From a bacterium (lineage in GTDB: Bacteria > Zhuqueibacterota > Zhuqueibacteria > Residuimicrobiales > Krinioviventaceae), in contig CAXXFV010000023.1 in NCBI GenBank assembly GCA_963674595.2, positions 224,001-288,000 of the forward strand: a stretch of 64,000 nucleotides of DNA. Reading direction: 5' to 3'. A model generated the notes under the pieces. The model saw nothing but the letters and a program-made list of their open reading frames with translations. It had not been told where the DNA came from and ran no database searches. Position numbers and translations under genes: made by a program. This document shows positions 42,650 through 62,761 of this stretch, one piece after another; the stretch's first letter is position 1, and the number at the start of each line of letters is the position of its first letter.

Positions 42650-43201
42650 TCACTTTTTGTTGTTTTGTAAGCAAAAGGGCTGTATTCTTTTTAAAATAAC
42701 CGGAACAATGAAAATAAATGTCACAGTATTGATCGTCAAATGTATTAAGTAAAAAGACATTCCATAAAGAAAAGACACCACCATCTTTTGAAAATTAGCA
42801 CCCACCATAAACAGGGTGAAACTCAACGTTGTCATAACATCAAAAAACAGTGTCAAAAGAAAACCGATTGCTCCGAGCAATAACATTTTTTTAATTGTGA
42901 AACTTATTTGTGGATTTTTTTTGAAATAATAACCACCACACCACCCAACAACCGCCATGGAAATAATTTGTGCAATCAGTAAATTCGGCATTGCCATGCC
43001 AAGGGGATTAAAAACAGAAAATAGAAATTCTGACGTTGCACCAATTGCCGCACCATAAACCGGACCAACAATGCAGCCGCTGATAAAAACAGTTGCTGTG
43101 TAAAATTCAACGTTGGGTACACCGGCAAACAGATAACCAATAACCACAGCCATTGCCGTTAACAGAGATGATAAAATAATTTTAGAGTTTAATTTGCGCA
43201 T
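42650..43201 (-). CDS. ECF transporter S-component (CbrT-like)
   Basis: 183 aa, about six TM helices; PNVE motif, GPVYGAAIGA, FNPLG; no T or A components in the window. Confidence 0.75.
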   Translation of the reverse strand: MRKLNSKIILSSLLTAMAVVIGYLFAGVPNVEFYTATVFISGCIVGPVYGAAIGATSEFLFSVFNPLGMAMPNLLIAQIISMAVVGWCGGYYFKKNPQISFTIKKMLLLGAIGFLLTLFFDVMTTLSFTLFMVGANFQKMVVSFLYGMSFYLIHLTINTVTFIFIVPVILKRIQPFCLQNNKK

Positions 43202-43298
43202 CGTGTTTCCGTTTAGAATGAAAGAATCAATTTAGAAAACAGTCATTCGATAATCAAGTGCTTTTTCTGCCCTGTATTTCATCCTGTTAAAAAATATG

Positions 43299-43345
43299 TT
43301 GCATAAAATAGAAAAATATGTTAAAATAGGTGTACATAATAACAC
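43299..43345 (+). promoter_or_regulatory. Sigma-70 promoter with a palindromic operator over the +1 region
   Basis: TTGCAT-N17-TAAAAT (43299-43327) followed by GTGTACATAATAACAC (43330-43345). Confidence 0.5.
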
Positions 43346-43360
43346 TATAAGGCAAAGAGC

Positions 43361-43615
43361 ATGACATTTGAAGAGATAAATGAATATATTGAAGTTATTT
43401 CACATTTTACAAATCAGCGAATGCATCCGCTACGGTTTAAATGGAGAGACAGGACCTATTCCGTGTCGCATGTAAATGGTGTGTGGAGTGATGTAAAAGG
43501 TCAGTCTCGTGAATATCATTACCATGTTTCAACACGGAATTCCGGGTCTTTTGAGCTGATTTATAAAAATAACACATTTACATGGACGCTGGGCCGTGTT
43601 TGTTTGGATGACTGA
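43361..43615 (+). CDS. Small DUF6504-like protein
   Basis: P-x-RF-x-W-x-x-RTY-x-V...W...HYHV...FEL-x-Y...W-x-L pattern. Confidence 0.65.
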   Translation: MTFEEINEYIEVISHFTNQRMHPLRFKWRDRTYSVSHVNGVWSDVKGQSREYHYHVSTRNSGSFELIYKNNTFTWTLGRVCLDD

Positions 43616-43633
43616 AAATACGGTTCCTTTTTT

Positions 43634-44650
43634 TTACATGCCGATGCCGTGTATAACAGCCCCGCATGAAGGGCATGTTCCATTGTTAATATTGTTGTTT
43701 AGTATCTGAAATCCATATCGTTCAATAAGCTTTGTGCCGCATTTGTAACAAAAACTGTGTTCACCAATATCTCCGGCAATGTTTCCGGTATAAACATAAT
43801 ACAACCCGCATTCCTGCCCGATTTCCCTGCCTCTTTGAATTATACTCGGCAATGTTGGCGGGACCATTTGATATTTATAGTTCGGATAAAACCGGCTGAT
43901 ATGCCAGGGTGTTTCCGGTCCGAGTTCGTTTTTAATAAAAAGTGCGATTTCTTTTAAATTTTTTTCATTATCAACATGTTGGGGCACAACGAGTGTTGTA
44001 ATTTCCAGCCAGATGTTTAGTTTTTTCATCTGTTTCAGCGTGTTAAGTACATGTTTTAAATTGCCACCGACAGTGTTTTTGTAAAAATCTTCGTCCCAAC
44101 CTTTAAGGTCAATGTTGGCGGCTTTTAAAAACGGTGCTGCCTCTTGCAACGGCTTTTGGTTAATATATCCATTGCTGACAAAAATGGTATCTATCTCGTA
44201 TTTTGCAGCAAGCTTGGCAATGTCCAACGCATATTCATAATAAACAGTCGGTTCTGTGTATGTGCAGGAAATGGTCTTGCATTGAGCTTGCAGGGCAAGT
44301 GCAACGATATTTTCAGCGCTTAATGTGTCGCCTAGAATATGACGATTGCCTGTTTTGGGCATTTGTGAAATTTCGTGATTCTGACAAAATTGGCACGAAA
44401 AATTACAGCCTGCTGTGGCAACAGAAAAAGATTTTGAACCCGGATGGACATGAAACAGTGGTTTTTTTTCTATGGGATCAATATGCGTGGCAATGGCTTT
44501 TTCATAAACAAGACTGTACAGCGTTCCTTTTCTGTTTTCCCGAACACCGCAAATGCCCCGTTCACCCGGATTGATTTTACATTGATGCGGACAAAGCAGG
44601 CACATAACTTTGTCGTCTGCAAGCTTTTGGTAATACAGAGCTTCCTTCAT
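43634..44650 (-). CDS. amrS: AmmeMemoRadiSam system radical SAM enzyme
   Basis: CLLCPHQC...CGVREN, DPIEKKPLFH, CNFSCQFCQN (CxxxCxxC), TYTEP, PWHISRFYP, YVYTGN, C-terminal Zn ribbon. Confidence 0.92.
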   Translation of the reverse strand: MKEALYYQKLADDKVMCLLCPHQCKINPGERGICGVRENRKGTLYSLVYEKAIATHIDPIEKKPLFHVHPGSKSFSVATAGCNFSCQFCQNHEISQMPKTGNRHILGDTLSAENIVALALQAQCKTISCTYTEPTVYYEYALDIAKLAAKYEIDTIFVSNGYINQKPLQEAAPFLKAANIDLKGWDEDFYKNTVGGNLKHVLNTLKQMKKLNIWLEITTLVVPQHVDNEKNLKEIALFIKNELGPETPWHISRFYPNYKYQMVPPTLPSIIQRGREIGQECGLYYVYTGNIAGDIGEHSFCYKCGTKLIERYGFQILNNNINNGTCPSCGAVIHGIGM

Positions 44651-44659
44651 AATAAGCTC

Positions 44660-45208
44660 CTATTTTTGTTCCCGTTCTTTTTTACTGAAAATACAGCCAC
44701 AATAGTCTTGACGATAAAGATTATATTGTTTTGAAAGTTCAATGCTCCGTTTGAACCCGTCTTTCTTTTTAAAATTGGATTCGAGATATTTTGTTCCCGT
44801 TTTTTCTGCTATCTCAAAACCGATTTTATTAATAAGCTCGGCATCTTTATGAGGACTAACAGTGAGCACAGTGCCGAAATAGTCGTATCCGTTTTCTTTG
44901 GCGGCAAGGGCTGTTTTTTGCAGGCGCATATAAAAGCAAACATGGCAGCGGGCGCCTTTTTCCGGCTCATGTTCCAGACCTTTAACTGCTTCAAACCAGT
45001 TTTTGGAATCATAGGGGGCCGGAAGTACTGAAACACCGATAAGCGGTGCCAGCCGGATCATCTCTTCAACACGCAGCTCATATTCGGATTGCGGGTGTAT
45101 ATTGGGATTATAAAAAAACACACCCACATCAAAATCCTGCTGTAATCGTTCCGCACCGACGGTTGCATCCGGGGCGCAACATACCTGGAGTAGTATTTTG
45201 GGTTTCAT
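44660..45208 (-). CDS. queH: Epoxyqueuosine reductase QueH
   Basis: CCAPD, YNPNIHP-x-x-EY, EPEKGARC-x-x-C, SPHK, LYRQDYCGC-x-FS. Confidence 0.92.
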   Translation of the reverse strand: MKPKILLQVCCAPDATVGAERLQQDFDVGVFFYNPNIHPQSEYELRVEEMIRLAPLIGVSVLPAPYDSKNWFEAVKGLEHEPEKGARCHVCFYMRLQKTALAAKENGYDYFGTVLTVSPHKDAELINKIGFEIAEKTGTKYLESNFKKKDGFKRSIELSKQYNLYRQDYCGCIFSKKEREQK

Positions 45209-49258: not shown

Positions 49259-50200
49259 TTAACGATCCTTTAACAACAAGTCGATTTTTTCCATATCTTC
49301 TTTTTCAATTGACCAGCCGGTGCCATGTATGTTTTGCTCAACCTGACTTTTTTTACGGGCACCAACAATTGCACAGGTCACAGCCGGATTTTCAAGCGTC
49401 CAGGCAATTGCCAGTTGTCCCACAGTTTTATTATATTTTTGTGCTATTCCCCGTAACTTTTCAATAACCTCTAAATTTCGTGAGAGTTTTGGCTCTTTAA
49501 AATCACCGTTTTTATGACGCCAATCATCTGCGGCCAGTTTTGTTATGTCAAAGGAACCGGATAAAAGCCCGGAATACATGGGACTATAAATAACGACACC
49601 AATATTATTCTTTTTGCAAAAGGGGAGTATTTCTTTTTCCGTATTTCGAACAAACATGCTGTATGGCGGCTGCAGTGAGTCAATGTTTTCAATTTCCAGA
49701 CATTTTTTCATCAGGTCAACATCAAAATTCGAAACGCCCAGCCGGCGCACTTTGCCTTCTTTTTTTAATTTGGCCATTTCATTCCATGACTCTTCTATGG
49801 GTGTATTTATGTCCGGCCAATGGATTTGATAAAGATCAATTGTTTCAATATCAAGCCGTTTTAGGCTGGCTTCAACTTCACGTCTTATACTTGCTGGTTT
49901 TAAACTACGGATCACATTTTCGTGTTCGTCCCAGACCATGCCGCACTTTGTAGCGATGTAAATATCGTCTCTTTTTCCTTTAATGGCTTTACCGACAATT
50001 TTTTCCGAATTGCCAAGACCGTATGCCGGGGCCGTATCGATCCAGTTTATGCCAAGGTCAATGGCCCTGTGAATGGTTTCTATAGAATCTTTTTCGTCGG
50101 ATTGTCCCCAGCCCCATTCCCAGGCCCCGCCAATGGCCCAGGCGCCGAGTCCTATTTCTGTAAGTTCGGGGCCATTTTTCCCCAAGATATTTTTTTTCAT
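49259..50200 (-). CDS. Aldo/keto reductase
   Basis: GLGAWAIGG, IDTAPAYG, IATKCG, IDLYQIHWP, GVSNF, YSPM-x-SGLL. Confidence 0.95.
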   Translation of the reverse strand: MKKNILGKNGPELTEIGLGAWAIGGAWEWGWGQSDEKDSIETIHRAIDLGINWIDTAPAYGLGNSEKIVGKAIKGKRDDIYIATKCGMVWDEHENVIRSLKPASIRREVEASLKRLDIETIDLYQIHWPDINTPIEESWNEMAKLKKEGKVRRLGVSNFDVDLMKKCLEIENIDSLQPPYSMFVRNTEKEILPFCKKNNIGVVIYSPMYSGLLSGSFDITKLAADDWRHKNGDFKEPKLSRNLEVIEKLRGIAQKYNKTVGQLAIAWTLENPAVTCAIVGARKKSQVEQNIHGTGWSIEKEDMEKIDLLLKDR

Positions 50201-50857: not shown

Positions 50858-52592
50858 CCTTTAAACTTGGAATGCGAAAAGCAGCCAGAATATCGTTTTG
50901 ACTGATAATTCCCACGAGTAATGAGCGGTCTCTTTTATCAACAACCGGCAGGTAAGTGATGTCACTGCGTTTTTGAAAAATTATCAAAACTTCTCCAAGG
51001 GTTTGTTCCGGATGAACAGCCAGCGGTTCCGGTTTTAATAAATCACGTGCAACAACAATGCTGGAAAGAGATTCATCGACTAAAACATCCCGTATATCAC
51101 TGTAATCCAGTATGCCCAAAAAGTGGTTTTCATCATCAACTATGGGAAATCGATCGTATTTACTGTGTGAAATTAATTTTAATATATTATTAAAGTGTGT
51201 TTTTTCATTTATAGTGTCGACATTCTTTCTCATAACGTGCTGAATAAGAATGTCGGACGGACTTTTGAATTTATGACCTACTGGAATACCCAGTGAACGT
51301 CTGAAATGCTCAAGAACATGATGTAAACCCTCATAAGTCCCTTCCGGTGCACGTTTAACAAGCAATGTTAAAACAGGGACCTCGCCGGAATGCACCAAAG
51401 CATGTCGTACTGAAATAGGACCGATAAGTTCGAAAATTACGACCGATCCTAAAATAAGTGATTGTACTATCATACCGCCTTCCGGCCAAATTTGGGCCAG
51501 CGTTTGCGATAGCCCTATTGCTACTCCTGCCTGGGCCATAAGCGCATAACCCAGCCATTTTCTTTCCACAAGGCCAAATCCACCCAGTTTTGTTCCAATC
51601 CAACTGCCAAAGATTTTACCGGCAATTCGGAAAATAATGTATATCATGCCTAAAAATCCGATATGCGCTAATGCGTCAATATGTAAACTGGCACCGGCAA
51701 TGACAAAAAATAGCACATAAAGTGGATAGTCGATGCTTCTGAGTGCTTCGAATAACATTTTAGATTTTGGTGAAGAGTTGATAATAACAACACCGGCGAT
51801 AAAGCAGTCTAAAAACAGATCAATATGTAATAGCCGGGAGATACCGACGTTGGCAATTACGGCACCAAGTAACAAAAGCTGCATTTCAACCCTTTTTTCC
51901 ATTTTTTGGGCCCAGATACTGATAATAAAACCTGTCAATATTCCAAGTCCAACAGGCGCCAGTAACTTCCAGATGAGTGTGAGATAAGATCCCTGGGCCT
52001 GGAAAAGATAGCGGGTAATAATGTTAAAAGTAATGATAGAAATTAAATTGTTCAAGCCGATGAGGGCCAATACCAGGTCTGTTACCGGGCCGTCTGACTC
52101 ATATTCCCGAATAACAAGCAGTGACGCTGCCGGAGCTGTGGCAATGGAAATAACACCCATGAAAACGGACAAGTATATGGATGTTGTCAACACACTCATG
52201 GAAGAGTGTATCGTGGTTTTTATAAAAAATAAATTTGTTAAAAACAGTGACAAGCCCACTAGAACAAATGTAATAAGGGTCTCTGAAACTGAAAGCACGG
52301 CAAGCCTTTTACCCCAGCGGAGTAACGAGTCTGTTTTAAATTGACTGCCGATTACAAGCATGATCATTGCCAGTGCAATATCGGAGAGTACGATAATATC
52401 ATGAATCGATTCGGCTTTAATTAAGGCCGGGTATCCCAATAATTTTGCTAAAGACGGACCTGTCAGCAAACCGACAATAAGATAGGCCGTTACTTTGGGG
52501 ATATGAATTTTACTTAGTAACCTTGAAAAAATCAGAGCAGCCATAAACGCTGTTCCAATTCCCAGTAAAACATGTCCGTAATGTGTTGTCAA
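50850..52592 (-). CDS. Cation:proton antiporter (CPA2-like) with C-terminal CBS pair, TTG start
   Basis: IPKVTAYLIVGLL-x-GP, ATAPAA, FFVIAGASL, AQAGVAIGL; CBS motifs FPIVD and LPVVD...VGIISQND. Confidence 0.88.
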   Translation of the reverse strand: MTTHYGHVLLGIGTAFMAALIFSRLLSKIHIPKVTAYLIVGLLTGPSLAKLLGYPALIKAESIHDIIVLSDIALAMIMLVIGSQFKTDSLLRWGKRLAVLSVSETLITFVLVGLSLFLTNLFFIKTTIHSSMSVLTTSIYLSVFMGVISIATAPAASLLVIREYESDGPVTDLVLALIGLNNLISIITFNIITRYLFQAQGSYLTLIWKLLAPVGLGILTGFIISIWAQKMEKRVEMQLLLLGAVIANVGISRLLHIDLFLDCFIAGVVIINSSPKSKMLFEALRSIDYPLYVLFFVIAGASLHIDALAHIGFLGMIYIIFRIAGKIFGSWIGTKLGGFGLVERKWLGYALMAQAGVAIGLSQTLAQIWPEGGMIVQSLILGSVVIFELIGPISVRHALVHSGEVPVLTLLVKRAPEGTYEGLHHVLEHFRRSLGIPVGHKFKSPSDILIQHVMRKNVDTINEKTHFNNILKLISHSKYDRFPIVDDENHFLGILDYSDIRDVLVDESLSSIVVARDLLKPEPLAVHPEQTLGEVLIIFQKRSDITYLPVVDKRDRSLLVGIISQNDILAAFRIPSLKDE

Positions 52593-52788
52593 GCGACATC
52601 CTTTCTTGATATTATAATTATAAAATATACCAGATTATATATAATATCAATATTAATATCAAGTTTATTCCTTTTGCCGTTATAAAAGAGATTTGCTATA
52701 AAAACGTATGATAATTAAATTTTTCTTGGATTCTTGCTTTTGATTTTGTTCATTTGAAAAATACAAATTTTTTTAATAAAAAAGAAGG

Positions 52789-54057
52789 ATGTTGATTACT
52801 GTGGAAAAAAATAGACGAGAACCATCAGGCATTTACCGTTGGACTGTTTTGTTTTTTATCAGTTTGGCAATGTTCGGTAATTATTATATTTATGACAGTA
52901 TAAGTCCTCTTGCTGATCTTTTGAAAAATCAGTTGGGATTTTCTGACAGTAATATAGGTTTATTAAATGCGATTTATAGTATTCCCAATGTCATTATGGT
53001 GTTGATCGGCGGAATTCTTATTGATCGTATCGGTACAAAACGCGCTTCGTTTTTGTTTGCCGCTTTTTGCATGATCGGCGCCATTATAACTTCATTACAG
53101 GGAAATGTGGCTTTAATGGCCACCGGACGACTTGTCTTTGGTTTAGGTGCAGAGTCATTGATTGTTGCTATTACAACGGTCATTGCAAAATGGTTCAAGG
53201 GAAAAGAGTTGTCCTTTGCTTTTGGTTTGAATTTAACCATTGCCCGTTTGGGAACATTTGCCGCACTTAATTCACCGACTTGGGCAAAATCTTTATATGT
53301 GAATTGGCAATATCCGTTATTGATTTCTGTTGCTGCCGGTGTAATTTCGGTATTAGCTGTTATTGTCTATTTTTCCATGGAACGTTATGCTGATAAACAT
53401 TTTACAATCAGCGAATCTGATAAAGTTGATAAAGTATCCTGGGGTGAAATTTTTAGAATGAGTCCATCGTTTTGGTATATTACTCTTTTATGTGTTACGT
53501 TTTATTCGGCTGTTTTTCCTTTTCAAACATTTGCCGTCAAGTTTTTTATGGAACATCATGGAATAAGCCGGTCTATGGCAGGATTTACTTCCAGTTTTAT
53601 CACCTTTGCATCCATGATCGGTACACCGCTTTTTGGTTTAATGATTGACCGCATTGGTAAAAGGGCTTCTGTTATGATGCTGGGCTCATTGCTGCTTGTT
53701 CCCGTATATTTATTGTTGGTCTATACGCCGCTTCACCCGCTTGTGCCAATGGTTATGATGGGTATTGCTTTTTCACTTGTTCCTGCATCCATGTGGCCTT
53801 CTGTTGCCTTAATTGTGGAACAAAATAAGCTGGGAACAGCCTATGGTTTAATGACAATGATTCAAAATATAGGACTGGCCGGTTTTAATCTTGTTATTGG
53901 TTTTGCAAATGATCAAACCGGCGGCTATTCTGCCGGAATGTGGATTTTTTCAATATTGGGATTTGCCGGAATGTACTTTGCGTTTATGTTAAAACGTGCT
54001 GATCAAAAATCCGGAAACGGAAGACTCGAAAATAGTACTGTGAAATCGCCTGTTTAA
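52789..54057 (+). CDS. MFS transporter (MFSD1-like)
   Basis: 12 TM helices; GILIDRIG and GLMIDRIGKR motif A; GRLVFGLGAES; FGNYYIYD. Confidence 0.9.
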   Translation: MLITVEKNRREPSGIYRWTVLFFISLAMFGNYYIYDSISPLADLLKNQLGFSDSNIGLLNAIYSIPNVIMVLIGGILIDRIGTKRASFLFAAFCMIGAIITSLQGNVALMATGRLVFGLGAESLIVAITTVIAKWFKGKELSFAFGLNLTIARLGTFAALNSPTWAKSLYVNWQYPLLISVAAGVISVLAVIVYFSMERYADKHFTISESDKVDKVSWGEIFRMSPSFWYITLLCVTFYSAVFPFQTFAVKFFMEHHGISRSMAGFTSSFITFASMIGTPLFGLMIDRIGKRASVMMLGSLLLVPVYLLLVYTPLHPLVPMVMMGIAFSLVPASMWPSVALIVEQNKLGTAYGLMTMIQNIGLAGFNLVIGFANDQTGGYSAGMWIFSILGFAGMYFAFMLKRADQKSGNGRLENSTVKSPV

Positions 54058-54091
54058 TACTGTGAGATAATTAATCGATTATGGAGAAGTT

Positions 54092-54976
54092 ATGAAAAAA
54101 TTTTATTTGTTTATTTTTTGTCTAAGTATTTCATTAATTCAATGTGCTCCACCCCAAAATACTGTTTCAATTATGACATTTAATCTGAGATATGGGACGG
54201 CTGATGATGGTGACAACTCGTGGGAGTTTCGAAAAGACATGCTGATTGAATGTATACAACAATATAACCCGGATATTCTGGGCGTCCAGGAAGCATTACC
54301 CATGCAGATAGAAAAAATATCATCCGCGTTTAAAGATTATAAAGTTTTTGGAGTCGGCAGATATTACAACGTAGAAATTGATGAAAGGCCCCAGGAAAGT
54401 ATGAATGGTGAGTCTTGCAACATTTTTTATAATGCTAAAAAGTTTGAACTTTTGGACCATGGAACCTTTTGGCATAGCGATACTCCGGATGTCCCTGCAA
54501 GCATGACATGGGGAAATAATCTTCCCCGCATTACCACATGGGGCATTCTTAAAGACTTGCAAACAGATAAGCAGTTTGTTGTGTTTAATAACCATTACGA
54601 CGGCCGTGAACCCTGTGCTTCCAATACAACAAAATTAAATTTGAAAAAATGGAAAGAAATTGCCGGAGAAAAACCAAGCATTTTTATGGGAGATTTTAAT
54701 CTCGAACCGTCCTCTGTCGGGCACCAGATGTTTTGCGAGCCTGATCAGAACGATTTATTAAAAGGCAATTTTGTGGATGTTTGGCAAGCATTAAATAAAG
54801 ATGAAGAGAATGCCGGCACTTCTAATGATTTTAACGGCCGGAAAGATAAAGCCCGAATTGACTGGTTTTTGACAACAAAAAACATTAAAGCTGAAAAGAT
54901 TGAAATCGTTTATTTTAATAAAAACGGCCGTTATCCGAGCGACCATTATCCTGTTTACACTGAATTGTCATTTTAA
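54092..54976 (+). CDS. Endonuclease/exonuclease/phosphatase family lipoprotein
   Basis: MTFNLRY, GVQEA, MGDFN, RIDW, PSDHYPV. Confidence 0.9.
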   Translation: MKKFYLFIFCLSISLIQCAPPQNTVSIMTFNLRYGTADDGDNSWEFRKDMLIECIQQYNPDILGVQEALPMQIEKISSAFKDYKVFGVGRYYNVEIDERPQESMNGESCNIFYNAKKFELLDHGTFWHSDTPDVPASMTWGNNLPRITTWGILKDLQTDKQFVVFNNHYDGREPCASNTTKLNLKKWKEIAGEKPSIFMGDFNLEPSSVGHQMFCEPDQNDLLKGNFVDVWQALNKDEENAGTSNDFNGRKDKARIDWFLTTKNIKAEKIEIVYFNKNGRYPSDHYPVYTELSF

Positions 54977-55103
54977 TCGTCCTCAATAAATATTAGGATT
55001 ATTTTGCCGTTAATGTTGTTACGTTAATAGGTTCACATATTTTTTGGTATAAACTGAAAAGGGGGAATTGTTTGAACATATTAACTATAACGGGAGGTCA
55101 GTT

Positions 55104-55517
55104 ATGGCAAAAGTATATTTAACCAGGCGGGTCCATTTTTCCGCATCTCACAGGTTACATACTGACCAGCTTTCCGCTGAAGAAAATTGGCAGCTTTATG
55201 GTCGGTGCAATAACCCCTTGGGACACGGGCATAATTATGAACTTGAAATTACAATTTGCGGTGAACCGGACCCCATAACAGGAATGATAATAGATTTAAA
55301 AGAATTAAAAAATATTGTTGAACAGGAAATTATAGAGCGTGTAGACCATAAACATCTTAATTTTGATGTGGATTTTCTTCAGGGAATCGTTCCGACAGCA
55401 GAAAATATTATTGTAGAATTTTGGAAGATACTTGAAGATAAATTCCCGAATGGAGAGCTCTATGAAATAAAACTTTATGAAACACCAAGAAATATTGCAA
55501 TTTACAGAGGTGAATAA
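55104..55517 (+). CDS. 6-pyruvoyl-tetrahydropterin synthase (eukaryote-like PTPS-II signature)
   Basis: [18 protein letters not shown] (C-x5-HGH), DHKHLN, PTAENI, LYETP; GGAGG RBS before the ATG at 55104. Confidence 0.88.
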
Positions 55518-55518
55518 T

Positions 55519-56079
55519 ATGTCAAGTGAATTTCAAAAATTGATTCATAGGCAGTTGGAATTGATAGGTGAGGATACAACAAGAGAAGGCCTTTTGCGTA
55601 CCCCCGAACGAGTTGAAAGTGCCTACGAATTTTTAACCACCGGTTACACAGCAGACATTAACGAGATCATTAATAATGCAATTTTTCATGAAGATTGCCG
55701 TGATATGGTTCTGGTCCGTAATATAGAATTTTACAGTTTGTGTGAGCACCACATGCTTCCATTTTATGGTAAATGTCATGTGGCTTATTTGCCCAAAGGT
55801 AAAATTATCGGGCTGAGTAAAATCCCTCGAATTGTTGATGTTTTTGCCCGCAGGTTACAGGTTCAGGAACGTATGACAAACCAAATTGCCAGAAAACTTG
55901 AGGAAATATTAGCTCCGGATGGTATTGCCGTTATTGTGGAAGGAAAACATCTTTGCATGATGATGCGGGGCGTAGAAAAGCAAAACAGTTTTATTACGAC
56001 CAGCGCCATGTTTGGGGCATTCAAGCAGGAGCGTGCGACCCGTATGGAATTACTGAATTTGTTGAACACCAGGGGTTGA
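55519..56079 (+). CDS. folE: GTP cyclohydrolase I
   Basis: [45 protein letters not shown]. Confidence 0.96.
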
Positions 56080-56081
56080 TA

Positions 56082-56801
56082 ATGGTTGATAACTCGTTAA
56101 AAGATAAAATAGTTTGGATAACAGGCGGTGGCAGGGGTATTGGCCAGGCTGCGGCAGAAGCTTTTGCAAAAATGGGGAGCAAGGTTGTCGTTTCCGCCCG
56201 AACAGAAGAGCAGGTCATGCAAACCGTCCGTGAAATTCAAAATTCCGGGGGAACTGCGCGTGCCGGTGTTTGCGATGTTACCAAAGCTGACCAGGTCCAA
56301 AATACTGTTAATATGATAAAAGATAATTGGGGAACTGTTGATATTCTGGTAAACAATGCCGGTATTGGCATTTTTAAAAAAATTTTAAATACAACGTTGG
56401 ATGATTGGCAGACCATGCTGGATGTTAATTTAACATCTGCTTTTTTATGCACCCAGGCTGTGCTGCCGGACATGATTGAAAATAAAAATGGCATGATCTT
56501 GAATATTGTTTCTGTTGCCGGAAAACAGCCCTATTATAATTGCGGCGGATATTGTGCTTCAAAATATGGTATGCTTGGTTTTACGGATGTTTTAAGAATG
56601 GAAACCCGGAAACACGGTATAAAGGTTGTTGCCGTATTACCCGGCGCAACAGATACGGATATATGGGGGGACGCAAATGTTGATCGCACATTAATGATGA
56701 CGCCCCAACAGGTTGCGAACTCTATTGTATCGGCTTGTACGACCGCCCCGGACGCAATGGTTGAAGAGATTGTTTTAAGACCTGTCGGTGGTGATTTGTA
56801 A
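56082..56801 (+). CDS. Short-chain dehydrogenase/reductase, probable Chlorobium-type sepiapterin reductase
   Basis: TGGGRGIG, NNAG, YCASK; PGATDTDIWG and C-terminal VEEIVLRPVGGDL resemble the C. tepidum sepiapterin reductase as I recall it; starts 2 nt after the folE stop. Confidence 0.75.
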   Translation: MVDNSLKDKIVWITGGGRGIGQAAAEAFAKMGSKVVVSARTEEQVMQTVREIQNSGGTARAGVCDVTKADQVQNTVNMIKDNWGTVDILVNNAGIGIFKKILNTTLDDWQTMLDVNLTSAFLCTQAVLPDMIENKNGMILNIVSVAGKQPYYNCGGYCASKYGMLGFTDVLRMETRKHGIKVVAVLPGATDTDIWGDANVDRTLMMTPQQVANSIVSACTTAPDAMVEEIVLRPVGGDL

Positions 56802-56837
56802 TTTGTATTTTTATTTTCCAAAATGGGAGAGGTTAAC

Positions 56838-57527
56838 ATGCTAAAATTAACTTATTTTTCTCATGATGCTTTTTTATTACAAAATGCCGATACAAAGTTG
56901 ATTTTTGATCCGTTCCTGACCGGTAATCCCAATGCTGTTATAACTCCGGAAGAAATTAAAACAGATTATGTTTTGCTGACACACGGTCATGGAGATCATT
57001 TGGGCGATGGAATAGCCATTGCCAGTGACAATGATGCTATGATTATCGCTCCATACGAACTGGCCATTTATTGTGGTAAACAGGGGTGCAAAGTCCATCC
57101 CATGCACATCGGCGGAAGTTACCAGTTTCCCTTTGGACGTGTGAAATTGACCATTGCACATCATGGCTCCGGGGCCGATCTTGGCGATGGTGCCTTGTCT
57201 TATATGGGAAATCCATGTGGTTTTCTTGTTACTATTGGCGATAAAACAATTTATCACGCCGGTGATACCGGCCTGTTTATGGATATGAAACTCATTGGCG
57301 CCATGAATGAAATTGATATTGCCCTGTTACCCATTGGTGACAATTTTACAATGGGGATTGATGATGCCGTTAAAGCCGTAGAATTTTTACAGCCGGAATT
57401 AACAATCCCCATGCATTATCAGACTTTTGATGTTATCAATACAGACCCTGATTTGTTTGTTGAAAAAGTTCAGAATATGGGGCTGAACGCAATGGTCCTG
57501 GACTATGGGCAGACCATAGAGTTTTAG
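56838..57527 (+). CDS. Metal-dependent hydrolase, metallo-beta-lactamase fold (UPF0173-like)
   Basis: DPFLTGNP, THGHGDH, YHAGDTGLF-x-DM, LPIGDNFTMG, IPMHY-x-TF. Confidence 0.9.
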   Translation: MLKLTYFSHDAFLLQNADTKLIFDPFLTGNPNAVITPEEIKTDYVLLTHGHGDHLGDGIAIASDNDAMIIAPYELAIYCGKQGCKVHPMHIGGSYQFPFGRVKLTIAHHGSGADLGDGALSYMGNPCGFLVTIGDKTIYHAGDTGLFMDMKLIGAMNEIDIALLPIGDNFTMGIDDAVKAVEFLQPELTIPMHYQTFDVINTDPDLFVEKVQNMGLNAMVLDYGQTIEF

Positions 57528-57618
57528 CTTGACTGACTTGGTTTTTATTAATATATTTTATTTCTTGACAAATATATAGTTAAATCAATTAAGAAATACT
57601 TTACAGTTTTTGAAAGAC

Positions 57619-57663
57619 AAAGGGTAGTTGGAAAGTTATTCTTTATACCGGCTACCTTTTTTT
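57619..57663 (+). terminator. Intrinsic terminator-like hairpin between the hydrolase and the S55 gene
   Basis: AAAGGGTAGTTGG...CCGGCTACCTTT followed by a T-run. Confidence 0.6.
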
Positions 57664-57721
57664 AATCAGGGCTTTTAAGGTGAATTTGATATGAGGTGTT
57701 GTTCTGAGAAAAGTTGAAACG

Positions 57722-59611
57722 TTGCTTTTGGGCTTTGTGGTAATGGTTTGGTGTTTTTTTGCACCTTTATTCGCTTCCGAGTGGAATGCTGAAATTATGC
57801 CCCTCAAGGATGTTCAACCCGGCATGTCGGGCATCGGAAAAACGGTTTTTTATGGGGAAGAAATCGAAGATTTTGGTGTTCAGGTGGTTGATATTATCAA
57901 AGATTTTTACCCCAAAACAGACATTATCCTGGTTCGGTTGACCGGTGCAAAAGCGGAAAAAACAGGTGTTGTCAGCGGAATGAGCGGAAGTCCGGTTTAT
58001 ATCGACGGGAAACTGGTAGGTGCGCTTTCATTAAGGTTTGGCCAATTTATGAAGGAGCCGATAGGCGGGGTTATGCCGATTGAGCACATGTTTAAACTCG
58101 TTTCGAGTGAAAATGTCCGGCAAATTGAAACCGGTCTGTCCGGTGGAAATATCATGTCCTATTTACAATCTGCCTTGATTAAACCGGAGGAAAATTTTTG
58201 GGTAAAACAATTTAAAACGGTCCCTGAAACGAATAGTACATTTCCATCTCTGAAAAATATTCATGCGCCGCTGGTTTTTTCCGGTTTTAATGAAGAAATT
58301 ATTTCCCCCTACCAGGACGTGTTTGAAACGATGGGTTTTAAAGTTATGGCCGGAGGCGGGCAGTCAAGTCAAACAGATGTTCCAAAGGACTTTCAACCCG
58401 GTTCTGCTGTTTCACAAGTGTTTATCAGTGGGGATTATACCATCGAAGCAACAGGAACTGTAACGGCCGTCAATGACCATCGTATCCTTGCCTTTGGACA
58501 CCAGATTTTTAATTTAGGTCCGGTTAATTTCCCCATGTCTCATGCTAAAATTCTTGTTACATTACCGAGTTTAATGGGATCCAGCAAAATGGCGGTTGCA
58601 ACAGATATTGTTGGAACATTTCGTCAGGACAGACTTGCCGGTGTGCTGGGAGACCTCTCCGTATTACCTGAAATGGTCCCGGTTTCTCTTGATATTAATT
58701 CACCAATAGATGGTAAAAACAACTATTCTTTCAAAATGGCTTCCGACCGGTCCCTGAATAACCTGATGCCCTTTTTCCTGCGAATTGCTTTAATCCAGGG
58801 ATTGACAACGGCCCGTTTGTCAAGCAGTAATAATTCATTGTATTTGAACGGAACTATACATTTTTCTGATGGTCGCAAATTAAATTTTAAAGATTTTTTT
58901 TCATCCTATCAAAATTTGGGATTTTTTGCTCCGGGTAATGATGTCACAGCCGTTGGTGATCTGGTTGCCGGTCTTATGGGTGTTCTTATGGTAAACAATT
59001 TTAAAGCACCAGAGGTAACTAAAGTTGATCTGTCTGTGCAAAATGTTCCCGGAGAACATGTTGCCGGTATCAGCAGCATTCAATTGGACAAAGTTGAAGT
59101 TTCCCCCGGAGATTCACTGACTTTGACAATTCGTTTAAAAGATAGTTTTGAAAATAGAAAAAATATTGTCGAAAAAATAAAATTACCTCAAAAAATTTCT
59201 GCAAAAAAGTTAACGCTTATCGTTTCTTGTTCGGAAACGTTGACGCAATATGAAGTACAGGCAAGCCGGTATCGATTTGTTCCGAAAAATTTCAGGCATT
59301 TACTGGAAATATTGTCCAGACGCCGTCAATCCAACAACATTTATATTCAGCTTCGCGCCCGAGAAACAGGCCTTGCCATTAATGATGATGAACTTGTCGG
59401 GCTTCCACCGTCCATTATGAATGTTATGAATTCCGAATCCATTCAGGGTGAAGAAAATGTTATGAATGACAGAGTATTGTATGAGACAAATATCAGTACA
59501 GAATATATGCTGAGGGGCGCAAAAAAAATGAGCGTAAACATTAAACAACCGGCAAAGGCTGTTGTGCCGTCCTTTGATGAAGAAACTCCGAAAGAAACTT
59601 TTTTCTGGTAA
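57722..59611 (+). CDS. SpoIVB-like peptidase S55 domain protein (exported); start may be slightly upstream
   Basis: Signal peptide; PGMSGIGKTVF, GVVSGMSGSPVYIDGKLVGA, ILAFGHQ, QDRLAG. Confidence 0.85.
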   Translation: MLLGFVVMVWCFFAPLFASEWNAEIMPLKDVQPGMSGIGKTVFYGEEIEDFGVQVVDIIKDFYPKTDIILVRLTGAKAEKTGVVSGMSGSPVYIDGKLVGALSLRFGQFMKEPIGGVMPIEHMFKLVSSENVRQIETGLSGGNIMSYLQSALIKPEENFWVKQFKTVPETNSTFPSLKNIHAPLVFSGFNEEIISPYQDVFETMGFKVMAGGGQSSQTDVPKDFQPGSAVSQVFISGDYTIEATGTVTAVNDHRILAFGHQIFNLGPVNFPMSHAKILVTLPSLMGSSKMAVATDIVGTFRQDRLAGVLGDLSVLPEMVPVSLDINSPIDGKNNYSFKMASDRSLNNLMPFFLRIALIQGLTTARLSSSNNSLYLNGTIHFSDGRKLNFKDFFSSYQNLGFFAPGNDVTAVGDLVAGLMGVLMVNNFKAPEVTKVDLSVQNVPGEHVAGISSIQLDKVEVSPGDSLTLTIRLKDSFENRKNIVEKIKLPQKISAKKLTLIVSCSETLTQYEVQASRYRFVPKNFRHLLEILSRRRQSNNIYIQLRARETGLAINDDELVGLPPSIMNVMNSESIQGEENVMNDRVLYETNISTEYMLRGAKKMSVNIKQPAKAVVPSFDEETPKETFFW

Positions 59612-59632
59612 TCAGGTAGATAAAAAGGTTTA

Positions 59633-61753
59633 ATGAATATGAAAACAGATTTTAAATATTTTTTGACTGGTTTGTTGATTTTGGTTCTGGCTCAATTCGT
59701 TATGGCGGCCAAACCCCGTGTCTACAGTTATAATTCTCAAAGCGATTTCGAAAGAGGTACCTATAAAGGAATTTCCATTCTCCATCCCGGCAAGATTACG
59801 ATTTCTCCGGCCATGCAAATGATCGCTGAAACCGGTGACCCATACATCTGGGATATGGCCTGCGATTCCAAAGGGAATGTATATGCCGCTACAGGAAATG
59901 ATGGAAAACTCTATCGCTATACCGCGAATGGAGACAGTTCTCTCTTTTTTGATGCTCCTGAACTGGAAATTTATGCTGTTTGTTTAGACAAAAATGATCG
60001 TGTTTTTGCAGGCACTTCTCCGAATGGTAAGGTTTATTCCATTGACAAAGCAGGTAACAGTAAAGTCATTTTTGATCCCGATGAAATATATATTTGGGAT
60101 TTATTAATTGATAATAATAATCAGCTTTACGTCGCCACCGGGCAAGCCGGTAATATTTATAAAATAGATGAATCCGGAAAAGCGCAAACTGTACTAAAAA
60201 GCGGTCAAAGTCATATTCGTTGCCTGGCAGTTGATGAAAAGAATATATTATATGCCGGTACGGCAGGAAATGGCTTTGTTTATAAAATAGATAGTTTAAA
60301 CGATCCTTATGTTTTGTTTGATACGCAAATGCAGGAAGTACATAGTCTGGTTGTTTCTGAAAAGGAAAATTATCTGTATGCTGCTGCTTTTGGTGAACCA
60401 AGTCAATTAATGCCGGACATTTTAAAACCTCAAAAAAGTAAAAGTTCCAAAGATAACGGTACTGATAAAGGTGATAAAGACGTTGCTTTAGCACCGCAGG
60501 CTATTATTTTGGACGATTTTGCCCGAAGTGTCAAAGTCCCGACCGCTTTGTTTCGGATTGATAAAGATGGTTATGCGCGTGATTTATGGCTGGGTCAGGA
60601 CGAACGTATTCAAAAATTATTTATAACACCAGATGGATTGTTATTGTGTTTGAGTGAAAAGGGACGATTGCACCAGGTTTCTTCAAAAGGGCAGAGTTCG
60701 GTTTTGTTAAAAATTAAAGAAGCAGAATTAACGGCTGTATGCAGTTCTTCAAAAGACCGTTTATTTATAGGAACATCAAATATGGGGTGTATTTACTGTA
60801 TTGGTCCGAATCCTTCTGAAAATGCCGAATTTGAATCGGAAACCCTGGATACCGGGGTTATTTCTCAGTGGGGCGTGTTAACATGTGAAGGTATATTTAA
60901 TAAAAATAATTGCCGGTTTTTTACACGATCCGGTAATACCGAACAGGCCAATGAAACCTGGAGCGATTGGAAAACGGTGCGTATGGAAAATGGTGATATG
61001 CGAATTGACTCACCTTTAGCACGGTTTGTACAATGGAAATGTGAGCTGCTGAAATCCGGAGGTGCGGCACCGGTTTTGGATAAAGTGTCTATTTCCTATC
61101 TTCAGAAAAATTTACCGCCGGAAGTAACAGACGTGGTTGTTCATAAACCCGGCGATTATTATGAAATGGATGATTCCAACAACAAAGGAAAGGGAGTGGT
61201 TTACCCCAAACCGTTACCCTCAAGCCAAAACAAAAGAGGCTTTCAAAGTGTTGATTGGTTTTTTCAGGACCCCAATTTTGACGGTCTTTTGTTTGATGTT
61301 TATTATCAAAGACTGGGCGATCCTTCATGGATTGCTTTTGTGAAAAAATTTGAATCCAATTTTTATTCATGGGATACACAGCAGTTGGCTGATGGTCAAT
61401 ATTTGATCAAAGTTGTTGCCACGGATTCCCCGAACAATCCGGCAGGTTCTGAATTATCCGGTGAACATACAAGCCAGGAGTTTGTCATTGATAATACCGG
61501 TCCGCAGGTTAAATTTATTGAACAGAATGACAATAAAGCAACTTTTCAGATAACCGATTCATGGAGTATGATTAGGGAAATTTATATCAGTATCAATGCA
61601 CAGGACTGGCAGCTTGTCTATCCTGTAGACGGGATTAGTGATTCGAAAAATGAAAAAATTGAGATAAATATTGATAACGATGTAAAAAATATAGCTGTTA
61701 AAGTCATGGATGCTGTTGATAATACAACAGTCGTTCATAAGGTATTTAAATAA
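59633..61753 (+). CDS. Exported beta-propeller protein with C-terminal FN3/Ig-like domains
   Basis: Repeated [VL]YA[AG]TG-x-x-G-x-[LIV]Y blades; TRSGNT...WSDW...SP-x-ARFVQWK; DGQYLIKVVATD...IDNT-x-P. Confidence 0.8.
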   Translation: MNMKTDFKYFLTGLLILVLAQFVMAAKPRVYSYNSQSDFERGTYKGISILHPGKITISPAMQMIAETGDPYIWDMACDSKGNVYAATGNDGKLYRYTANGDSSLFFDAPELEIYAVCLDKNDRVFAGTSPNGKVYSIDKAGNSKVIFDPDEIYIWDLLIDNNNQLYVATGQAGNIYKIDESGKAQTVLKSGQSHIRCLAVDEKNILYAGTAGNGFVYKIDSLNDPYVLFDTQMQEVHSLVVSEKENYLYAAAFGEPSQLMPDILKPQKSKSSKDNGTDKGDKDVALAPQAIILDDFARSVKVPTALFRIDKDGYARDLWLGQDERIQKLFITPDGLLLCLSEKGRLHQVSSKGQSSVLLKIKEAELTAVCSSSKDRLFIGTSNMGCIYCIGPNPSENAEFESETLDTGVISQWGVLTCEGIFNKNNCRFFTRSGNTEQANETWSDWKTVRMENGDMRIDSPLARFVQWKCELLKSGGAAPVLDKVSISYLQKNLPPEVTDVVVHKPGDYYEMDDSNNKGKGVVYPKPLPSSQNKRGFQSVDWFFQDPNFDGLLFDVYYQRLGDPSWIAFVKKFESNFYSWDTQQLADGQYLIKVVATDSPNNPAGSELSGEHTSQEFVIDNTGPQVKFIEQNDNKATFQITDSWSMIREIYISINAQDWQLVYPVDGISDSKNEKIEINIDNDVKNIAVKVMDAVDNTTVVHKVFK

Positions 61754-61774
61754 TAAACGGGAACAAGTAAATAA

Positions 61775-62761
61775 ATGACAGGAAAATACAACTGGACAGA
61801 GTTTAACCGTTTTATTGAGGATAAAAAAGAAATCCTCATTACCACCCACGTCCATCCGGATGGTGATGCGATTGGTTCTGAAATTGCTCTCGCCATCTAT
61901 CTCGAACAACTCGGTAAAAAAGTTGTCATATTGAACAGTGATCCCATGCCCGGGTATTTCAAGTTTTTAGATCCCAAAAACCAGGTAATAACTTTTAAGG
62001 GTGATGAACATCATGATCTGATAAAACAGTGTGATGCGGCTGTATCTGTAGATATATCTGAATGGCGGCGTTTGGGCAAAGTCGGTGAAATAATTCAGCA
62101 GATCAACCTTGCCATGGCCTGTATTGATCATCATATTGCTTCGGAAAAATTTGTCGATGTATTTATTTCCGATTCCCATGCATCTTCTACGGGTGAACTT
62201 ATTTATGACCTTGTGTTACAAAATAATGGTGAATTTACACCACAACTTTTAAATGCCCTTTATACATGTATTTTAACAGATACAGGATCGTTTCGCTTTT
62301 CAAATACAACCCCGCATACCCATAAAATCATTTCTGATCTTATTGCGCGAAATGTTGATTTTATAGGAGTTTATAAACATGTTTACGAGAGTTACTCTTT
62401 TGGACGGACAAAGCTGATTGGTTCTGTGTTGTCTAATTTACAGCAGGATTGTAACGGGCGTTTGGTATGGTTTGTGCTTAGTAATAAAATGATTGCCGAT
62501 GCCGGTATAGAGTTTTGGGAAACAGAAAGTTTTTCCGAACTGACGCGGAATATTAAAGATGTTGAGGTTTCTCTCATGTTTACCGAGGTGGACCGTGGGA
62601 CCAAAGTCAGTCTCCGTTCCAAAGGTCAAGTCGAGGTGAATACATTGGCAAAATCATTTGGCGGTGGTGGACACAAATTTGCTTCCGGTGCAACAATCCC
62701 CAAACCGTTAGACAACGTTGTTGAGGATGTTGTTATGGCGGCAAAAAAGCTTTTTCAATAA
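61775..62761 (+). CDS. nrnA: Bifunctional oligoribonuclease/PAP phosphatase (DHH/DHHA1)
   Basis: THVHPDGDAIGS, IDHH, TDTGSFRF, SLRSKG, GGGGH-x-x-ASG. Confidence 0.93.
   Translation: MTGKYNWTEFNRFIEDKKEILITTHVHPDGDAIGSEIALAIYLEQLGKKVVILNSDPMPGYFKFLDPKNQVITFKGDEHHDLIKQCDAAVSVDISEWRRLGKVGEIIQQINLAMACIDHHIASEKFVDVFISDSHASSTGELIYDLVLQNNGEFTPQLLNALYTCILTDTGSFRFSNTTPHTHKIISDLIARNVDFIGVYKHVYESYSFGRTKLIGSVLSNLQQDCNGRLVWFVLSNKMIADAGIEFWETESFSELTRNIKDVEVSLMFTEVDRGTKVSLRSKGQVEVNTLAKSFGGGGHKFASGATIPKPLDNVVEDVVMAAKKLFQ

Follow-up and report, generated by a model that had tools for sequence, protein, structure and literature searches.

This analysis concerns a putative pterin operon in a stretch of 64,000 nucleotides of bacterial DNA (the window), which covers positions 224,001 to 288,000 of contig CAXXFV010000023.1 in a genome of the phylum Zhuqueibacterota (GCA_963674595.2). 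The genome is a 6.6-Mb, 37-contig assembly that is rated 97.6% complete. Three adjacent genes on the forward strand of the window encode a 6-pyruvoyl-tetrahydropterin synthase (PTPS), a GTP cyclohydrolase I (FolE) and a short-chain dehydrogenase/reductase (SDR), in this order:

55104 to 55517, + strand: predicted 6-pyruvoyl-tetrahydropterin synthase of the PTPS-II type, 137 amino acids (PF01242, 123.4 bits)
55519 to 56079, + strand: predicted GTP cyclohydrolase I FolE, 186 amino acids (PF01227, 252.2 bits; TIGR00063, 251 bits against a cut-off of 181.6)
56082 to 56801, + strand: classical SDR, predicted member of the Chlorobium-type sepiapterin reductase family, 239 amino acids (PF00106, 213.6 bits)

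The PTPS and folE genes are separated by a single nucleotide (TAA-t-ATG; the stop codon TAA occupies 55515 to 55517 and the folE ATG begins at 55519), and the folE and SDR genes by two (TGA-ta-ATG; stop codon TGA at 56077 to 56079, SDR ATG at 56082). The SDR gene ends with the stop codon TAA at 56799 to 56801, and a purine-rich stretch resembling a ribosome-binding site is found ahead of each of the three starts. From this layout, we infer that the three genes are one translationally coupled and co-transcribed unit. The coordinates, the gaps of 1-2 nucleotides and the motifs quoted in an initial annotation of the window were all correct when compared with the list of open reading frames (ORFs) and with the junctions read directly. 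With a probability of roughly 80%, these three genes would convert GTP into a tetrahydrobiopterin (BH4)-type pterin.

The best solved relatives of the PTPS are the rat (1b66, E 3.1e-45) and human (3i2b, E 3.1e-43) enzymes, whereas E. coli-type QueD chains match only at E 1.1e-8 to 2.2e-8. Residues 4-137 of the window protein align end to end with residues 7-140 of 1b66, and 68 of these 134 positions are identical, as counted from the alignment midline. In the rat enzyme, we take His23, His48 and His50 to be the zinc ligands and Cys42, Asp88 and His89 to be the catalytic residues, together with Glu133. Adding four to the chain index of 1b66 reproduces all seven of these positions, and all of them are kept in the window protein, in which H16, C35, H41, H43, D81, H82 and E126 are invariant across nine of nine sequences of the lineage. 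The motif CNNPLGHGH has the form Cx5HGH (C35-NNPLG-H41-G-H43), the signature given for PTPS-II in passages of PMC5041015 and PMC5445326, which list CxxxHGH for QueD and ExxHGH for PTPS-III. The gene is the sole PF01242 gene of the genome, and its product falls below both NCBIfam cut-offs, with 67.3 bits against 89.25 for TIGR03367 (QueD). As judged from its sequence, the protein is an animal-type PTPS-II and not QueD; this had been proposed from the motif and is borne out by Cx5HGH and by the E values of rat and human PTPS as compared with those of QueD.

FolE also exceeds the cut-off of the curated model NF006825 (262.9 bits against 174), and the genome has no other match to PF01227. Because it is the only GTP cyclohydrolase I, FolE would also feed a separate folate branch with FolB and FolK. 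FolB (108 bits) and HPPK (134.7 bits) are encoded side by side elsewhere in the genome, on contig C16, and therefore no bypass of FolB is needed.

The SDR aligns over its full length with the sepiapterin reductase of Chlorobium tepidum (2bd0). Its segment PGATDTDIWG and its C-terminus VEEIVLRPVGGDL stand opposite PGAVYTPMWG and VEEIILRPTSGDI in 2bd0. The cofactor motif TGGGRGIG (TGxxxGxG) is present, and the tetrad N116, S144, Y157 and K161 is invariant in a 21-row family alignment and in all 46 PTPS-linked SDR rows. A passage of PMC7520308 reports Phe-99 and Trp-196 of the C. tepidum enzyme to be indispensable for substrate binding; counted along the printed alignment, they correspond to F98 and W195 of the window SDR. 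In a 60-row alignment of 46 PTPS-linked SDRs and 14 SDR paralogues from the window's own genome, Trp occupies the Trp-196 column in 39 of the 46 linked proteins and in none of the paralogues, and Phe occupies the Phe-99 column in 21 of the 46 and again in none of the 14. The tail [VI]EE..(L/M)RPxxGD is common to the PTPS/folE-linked SDRs of KSB1-like bacteria, Ignavibacteria, Rhodothermota and Verrucomicrobiota and is also present in 2bd0. With a profile of 21 family members, 2bd0 ranks first of 538 PDB matches (242.8 bits), and the next single-domain SDR, 3rkr, follows at 209.6 bits, a margin of 33 bits; a two-domain protein sums to 236.4 bits. Close homologues are named only 'SDR family oxidoreductase' in public databases, which is the kind of generic label that the initial annotation had predicted.

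In the proposed pathway, FolE would convert GTP to 7,8-dihydroneopterin triphosphate, from which PTPS-II, with its zinc and a Cys-Asp-His triad, would eliminate triphosphate to give 6-pyruvoyl-tetrahydropterin. The Chlorobium-type SDR would then reduce the side-chain carbonyls, probably with NADPH, to a tetrahydrobiopterin. The enzyme activities, the cofactor of the SDR and the identity and stereochemistry of the product are all predictions from gene and protein sequences. The product may be the L-threo isomer, a suggestion that comes solely from the conserved equivalents of Phe-99 and Trp-196. A tetrahydrobiopterin-type pterin had been put forward as the product at the outset, and the gene identities, the catalytic residues and the linkage of the genes across phyla support it as the most likely one.

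The distribution of the operon was surveyed in 167 species genomes of the window's phylum, including the window's genome. The search with the PTPS is nearly bimodal: 47 of the 167 genomes have a match at E <= 1.8e-53, and the others have either QueD-like matches (about 1e-5 to 4e-12) or none. The sole intermediate is a 421-amino-acid open frame (G010:C195:538-1722) with three consecutive PTPS-like repeats (E 1.1e-23, 2.0e-16 and 3.5e-14). Among named homologues, the closest carry the labels candidate division KSB1 or Calditrichaeota. The order PTPS-folE-SDR is kept in 26 of 29 short loci of relatives (of the other three, one is truncated where its contig ends and two, both from one genus, have no SDR) and in 18 of 20 longer loci of the phylum. 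In a sample of 401 Bacteroidota-phylum genomes, PTPS and folE are located directly upstream of the SDR gene in 29 of the best 30 SDR loci; the C-terminal peptide of 2bd0 was found in none of the best 30. These counts show that the three-gene arrangement described for the window is real and not due to chance.

Outside the phylum, one genome per species was scanned, and at least 583 stretches with PTPS-II-like genes were found in species-representative genomes, the best 80 of which were analysed as loci. In these 80 loci, which come from many phyla, folE adjoins PTPS in 55, and 32 have a Trp-type SDR gene no more than 2.5 kb away on the same strand. Their labels include Ignavibacteria, Rhodothermales/Salinibacter, Opitutaceae and other Verrucomicrobia, Gemmatimonadota and Bacillaceae, and at least six phyla share the PTPS-folE-SDR arrangement. 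No recurrent neighbours beyond folE and the SDR gene were observed in the best 80 loci, in an incomplete survey in which the ORF caller took antisense ORFs at high GC. PTPS-II has previously been tied to FolE and sepiapterin reductase by gene clustering, and about 50 BH4-making bacteria have been predicted from the co-occurrence of sepiapterin reductase, according to a passage of the 2016 study (PMC5041015); FolE in the neighbourhood of PTPS-II is also noted in a passage of PMC5445326. Among the literature matches listed, no paper ties tetrahydrobiopterin to KSB1, Calditrichota or Ignavibacteria. The rarity of bacterial BH4 operons that the initial annotation implied does not hold in view of the number of stretches, the number of phyla and the earlier prediction in the passage of PMC5041015. 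The operon is neither rare nor new in kind; it adds an as yet unannotated example from a little-studied lineage.

Several observations weigh against the interpretation of the three genes as a BH4-type pathway. When the SDR is used as a single query, 2bd0 is only the fifth PDB match (124.9 bits), below a two-domain hydroxyacyl-CoA dehydrogenase, FabG and two uncharacterised SDRs (132-135 bits). NCBIfam offers generic SDR models only, the best of which scores 224.6 bits and stays below its cut-off of 234, and the family profile contained one row, P0104, with unknown gene context. A quick maximum-likelihood tree does set the window SDR apart from 13 of the 14 own-genome paralogues, with 44 PTPS-linked SDRs on one side of a branch (SH-like approximate likelihood ratio test, SH-aLRT, 85) and those 13 on the other (SH-aLRT 94); support for the key branch is moderate, however, and the tree has the paralogues as its only outgroups and does not include the C. 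tepidum sequence. One genus keeps PTPS-folE without an SDR orthologue in both of its two genomes, where the best matches reach about 112 bits over residues 5-193; a closed genome from the family of the window's genome reaches 302 bits. With regard to co-transcription, gene spacing is the one indication of it, and scans for promoters and terminators gave results no better than in shuffled sequence. Finally, the whole genome has no match to PF00351, PF01329, PF02898 or PF04116. The families sought were the aromatic amino acid hydroxylases (PAH, PF00351), pterin-4a-carbinolamine dehydratase, NO synthase and the fatty-acid-hydroxylase family, which includes alkylglycerol monooxygenase. Across the phylum, only two of the 167 genomes have PF00351, and all 47 with PTPS-II lack it; one of these 47 is a single contig that is rated 100% complete.

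Alternatively, the SDR would be a generic ketoreductase, FabG-like or similar, and a mere neighbour of the other two genes; the pathway would then end at 6-pyruvoyl-tetrahydropterin or would be finished by another reductase, for example the aldo-keto reductase encoded at 49259-50200. The ranking of FabG and uncharacterised SDRs above 2bd0, the generic NCBIfam models and the genus that has lost the SDR would fit this explanation, and two of 20 loci have an aldo-keto reductase gene within the broader syntenic block. It is nonetheless unlikely, given that the SDR gene stays with PTPS and folE across at least six phyla, and given the first rank of the C. tepidum enzyme with the family profile and its 33-bit margin over the next single-domain SDR, the Trp-196 equivalent that separates the linked SDRs from the own-genome paralogues and the C-terminal tail shared with 2bd0. 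The 2bd0 alignment, the family profile, the substrate-binding residues and the tree together support the SDR as a relative of the Chlorobium-type sepiapterin reductase, as had been suggested from its motifs, and as a predicted 6-pyruvoyl-tetrahydropterin/sepiapterin reductase.

Two other explanations concern the PTPS. As a QueD (6-carboxy-tetrahydropterin synthase), it would form a folE-queD operon for preQ0 with the SDR as an unrelated neighbour. It is indeed the only COG0720/PF01242 gene in a genome that modifies tRNA with queuosine, as TGT and QueH (44660-45208) are present, and it has the sub-threshold TIGR03367 match given above. FolE-QueD clustering is common in bacteria according to a passage of PMC5041015. 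This assignment is at odds with the Cx5HGH motif in the place of CxxxHGH and with E values of about 1e-8 for solved QueD as opposed to 3e-45 for rat PTPS. In addition, the genome has no QueC, its one weak PF06508 match being MnmA, and the radical-SAM gene beside QueH encodes an AmmeMemoRadiSam enzyme and not QueE, for which no genome-wide search was made. A separate QueD-like gene is present in 26 of the 46 relatives with the same PTPS type, indicating that PTPS-II and QueD are not interchangeable in these bacteria, and the linkage to the SDR gene is conserved across phyla. A QueD function is, as a result, very improbable. The PTPS could also replace FolB as a PTPS-III-like enzyme that forms 6-hydroxymethyl-dihydropterin, which would make the operon a folate operon. 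The genome's sole folE is indeed in the same operon, and PTPS-III is described in a passage of PMC5041015 as replacing FolB in various bacteria. Here, FolB and HPPK are both encoded on contig C16, ExxHGH is absent and a Pro is found three positions before HGH (CNNPLGHGH), and the SDR has no role in a folate route; such a bypass is extremely improbable. The presence of FolB and HPPK and the absence of QueC and of a second PTPS/QueD thus make both the folate-bypass and the queuosine roles unlikely, and a BH4-type pathway remains the preferred reading of the three genes.

The queuosine genes of the window are of interest in themselves. The region 42650-45208 on the reverse strand encodes QueH (epoxyqueuosine reductase, PF02677, 229.7 bits), the AmmeMemoRadiSam radical-SAM protein and the S component of an ECF transporter with a weak match to the folT family. 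A search for a separate queD, which had been recommended for this genome, gave none, as there is no second PF01242 gene. The presence of TGT and QueH together with the absence of QueC and QueD suggests that queuosine is obtained by salvage of a precursor and not by de novo synthesis.

The initial annotation had stated that the window contains no consumer of BH4. A Pfam scan of the flanking genes and 39 further ORFs of the window likewise revealed no hydroxylase, NO synthase or glycosyltransferase, and the statement can be extended to the whole genome for the four Pfam families and, for PF00351, to all 47 PTPS-II genomes. With no known BH4 user in the genome, the usual reason for making BH4 is missing here. 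Elsewhere, PF00351 is found in 17 of 57 operon-bearing genomes outside the window's phylum, with absences in metagenome-assembled genomes (MAGs) being uncertain. Two genomes of the Bacteroidota sample have the genes for PAH, AhpC, AhpC, PTPS, FolE and SDR in one cluster on one strand, and in two further genomes of this sample the PAH gene is located, by coordinates, about 2 kb upstream of the SDR gene. This clustering and co-occurrence tie the operon type to the supply of a tetrahydropterin cofactor. A strict rule according to which SDRs of the Phe-99 type occur only without PAH was rejected: PAH is present in four of 34 genomes with the Phe type as compared with 13 of 23 with a non-Phe type, counts that indicate a trend only, as many of the genomes are incomplete MAGs and related to each other. 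At least two of the four Phe-type genomes with PAH have it in the same cluster.

It is conceivable, and held here as a tentative idea, that the lineage keeps a complete BH4-type pathway without a known user and that the pterin serves something undescribed. Candidate uses would be a new enzyme that depends on pterin, a function in redox chemistry or as an antioxidant, or a pterin that, as in Chlorobium, is glycosylated or exported. The thought of an antioxidant comes from the peroxiredoxin genes that occur in pairs next to the operon in Ignavibacteria and in part of the Bacteroidota.

Loci of other lineages show several variations on the operon. In Ignavibacteria and in part of the Bacteroidota sample (L041, L043, L044, L046, L077, L173 and L175), PTPS is immediately preceded by one or two AhpC/TSA peroxiredoxin genes, and AhpC pairs are the lineage-specific neighbours in Ignavibacteria. 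Many AhpC-linked operons have a second, different SDR gene after the first, the product of which has Phe, Ser, Gly or Ile at the Trp-196 column. In six loci labelled Opitutaceae, Opitutae, Opitutus and Rhodohalobacter (L075, L079, L083, L091, L093 and L103), FolE is replaced by FolE2 (PF02649, the zinc-independent GTP cyclohydrolase IB), encoded after PTPS-II; FolE2 is the lineage-specific neighbour in Opitutaceae. Four loci labelled Candidatus Acidoferrum, Betaproteobacteria bacterium and Acidobacteriaceae (L064, L071, L072 and L099) have two tandem PTPS-II-like genes followed by folE, with a family-2 glycosyltransferase (GT2) gene directly upstream in all four; GT2 is the lineage-specific neighbour in Acidobacteria. 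These tandem loci are candidate pterin glycoside clusters of a type other than that of the Chlorobium GT-1 enzyme.

In the window, two further features adjoin the operon:

54977 to 55103, + strand: intergenic leader of 127 nucleotides 5' of PTPS, with a Shine-Dalgarno-like GGGAGG at 55093-55098, six bases before the ATG at 55104
56823 to 57527, + strand: UPF0173 metallo-beta-lactamase-fold hydrolase (NF001911, 288.7 bits; TM_1162, 3x2z, E 4.9e-71)

The leader probably holds the promoter of the three-gene unit. The promoter scan gave 23 sites as compared with a mean of 18.0 in shuffled sequence, and its match at 54965-54994 is at the shuffle level. A riboswitch 5' of the operon was also considered and rejected: an Rfam search of 52400-58000 at E <= 1 gave no riboswitch, such as the tetrahydrofolate (THF) riboswitch, and its sole match was a chance snoRNA. 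The hydrolase gene lies 21-36 nucleotides 3' of the SDR gene, with its likely true start at 56838, after GGGAGAGG, and it is possibly co-transcribed with the operon. For the UPF0173 family, promiscuous hydrolase activities are the only ones known (PMC7846560). The hydrolase gene follows the SDR gene or folE in 12 of the 20 long loci of the phylum, stays attached in two loci of a distant family (L168 and L172) where the rest of the block is lost and, among the best 80 PTPS-II loci, occurs in KSB1-like loci only. On the other side of the operon, an MFS transporter gene (52789-54057) is present nearby in six of the 20 long loci. Neither the transporter nor the hydrolase was accepted as an obligate part of the pathway, in view of these counts. 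A long co-directional block on the + strand (56823-62761; compared in loci L153-L172) encodes a SpoIVB-like S55 peptidase (629 amino acids), a 706-amino-acid beta-propeller protein and a DHH/DHHA1 phosphoesterase. These downstream peptidase, propeller and DHH genes are retained in 14-15 of the 20 loci of relatives. As these unrelated genes are kept more often than the transporter or the hydrolase, the neighbours reflect synteny of the lineage and not a pathway module.

A gene for a secreted protein of the endonuclease/exonuclease/phosphatase family (54092-54976, + strand) is located between the MFS gene and PTPS in the window's genome only; in relatives, the MFS gene abuts PTPS directly. It has a 33%-identical paralogue on contig C9 and looks like a local insertion. 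DNA near-identical to 54000-58000 (at least half of the sampled words) is present in nine public runs from five studies, which have coded organism labels and not the label 'metagenome', and small shares of the words of this region are found in marine, seawater and sediment metagenomes.

Because the SDRs have generic names and the PTPS remains under the NCBIfam cut-offs, the pathway will probably be missed when the metabolism of this uncultured lineage, and of several others, is reconstructed. A naming rule for bacterial sepiapterin reductases could be built on the combination of the Trp-196 position, the RPxxGD tail and the proximity of PTPS and folE. The survey also indicates that BH4-type pterin synthesis extends in bacteria far beyond the few cases studied so far, and that the operon occurs in two settings: either a PAH gene accompanies it, sometimes in the same cluster, or, as in the window's genome, no known user is present. 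The latter case raises again the old question of what biopterin is used for in Chlorobium and cyanobacteria, with many more genomes available for comparative profiling. The more interesting point that is left is that the whole lineage lacks a known user of the product.

Compared with known systems, the PTPS resembles the animal enzymes (rat 1b66 and human 3i2b) in its end-to-end alignment, in Cx5HGH and in the retained zinc and Cys-Asp-His-Glu positions. It differs from them in that it is bacterial, with a predicted activity, and is encoded in an operon of a genome without a BH4-dependent enzyme. The SDR shares with 2bd0 of C. tepidum, which makes L-threo-tetrahydrobiopterin, the length, PGAxxTxxWG with the Trp-196 equivalent, the Phe-99 equivalent and the tail VEEI(V/I)LRPxxGD(L/I); the modest single-sequence score and fifth rank of 2bd0 set them apart. 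C. tepidum also has a known pteridine glycosyltransferase (UniProt Q8KE51), according to a passage of PMC5683033. Mammalian sepiapterin reductase (mouse 1SEP and human 4Z3K) belongs to the same SDR superfamily and catalyzes the reaction that is predicted for the window SDR, yet it is found outside the best 60 of 231 PDB matches with the single SDR and outside the best 60 of 538 with the family profile; by these comparisons, the window SDR is of the bacterial Chlorobium type and not of the animal type. The operon as a whole has the same three functions, physically clustered, as the PTPS-II/FolE/sepiapterin reductase clusters of the SEED subsystem 'PTPS paralogs' described in a passage of Zallot et al. 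2016 (PMC5041015) and as the cyanobacterial pathway to BH4 glycosides. Against the roughly 50 bacteria predicted in that passage, at least 583 PTPS-II-like stretches were found here, together with PTPS-II in 47 of the 167 genomes of a single phylum.

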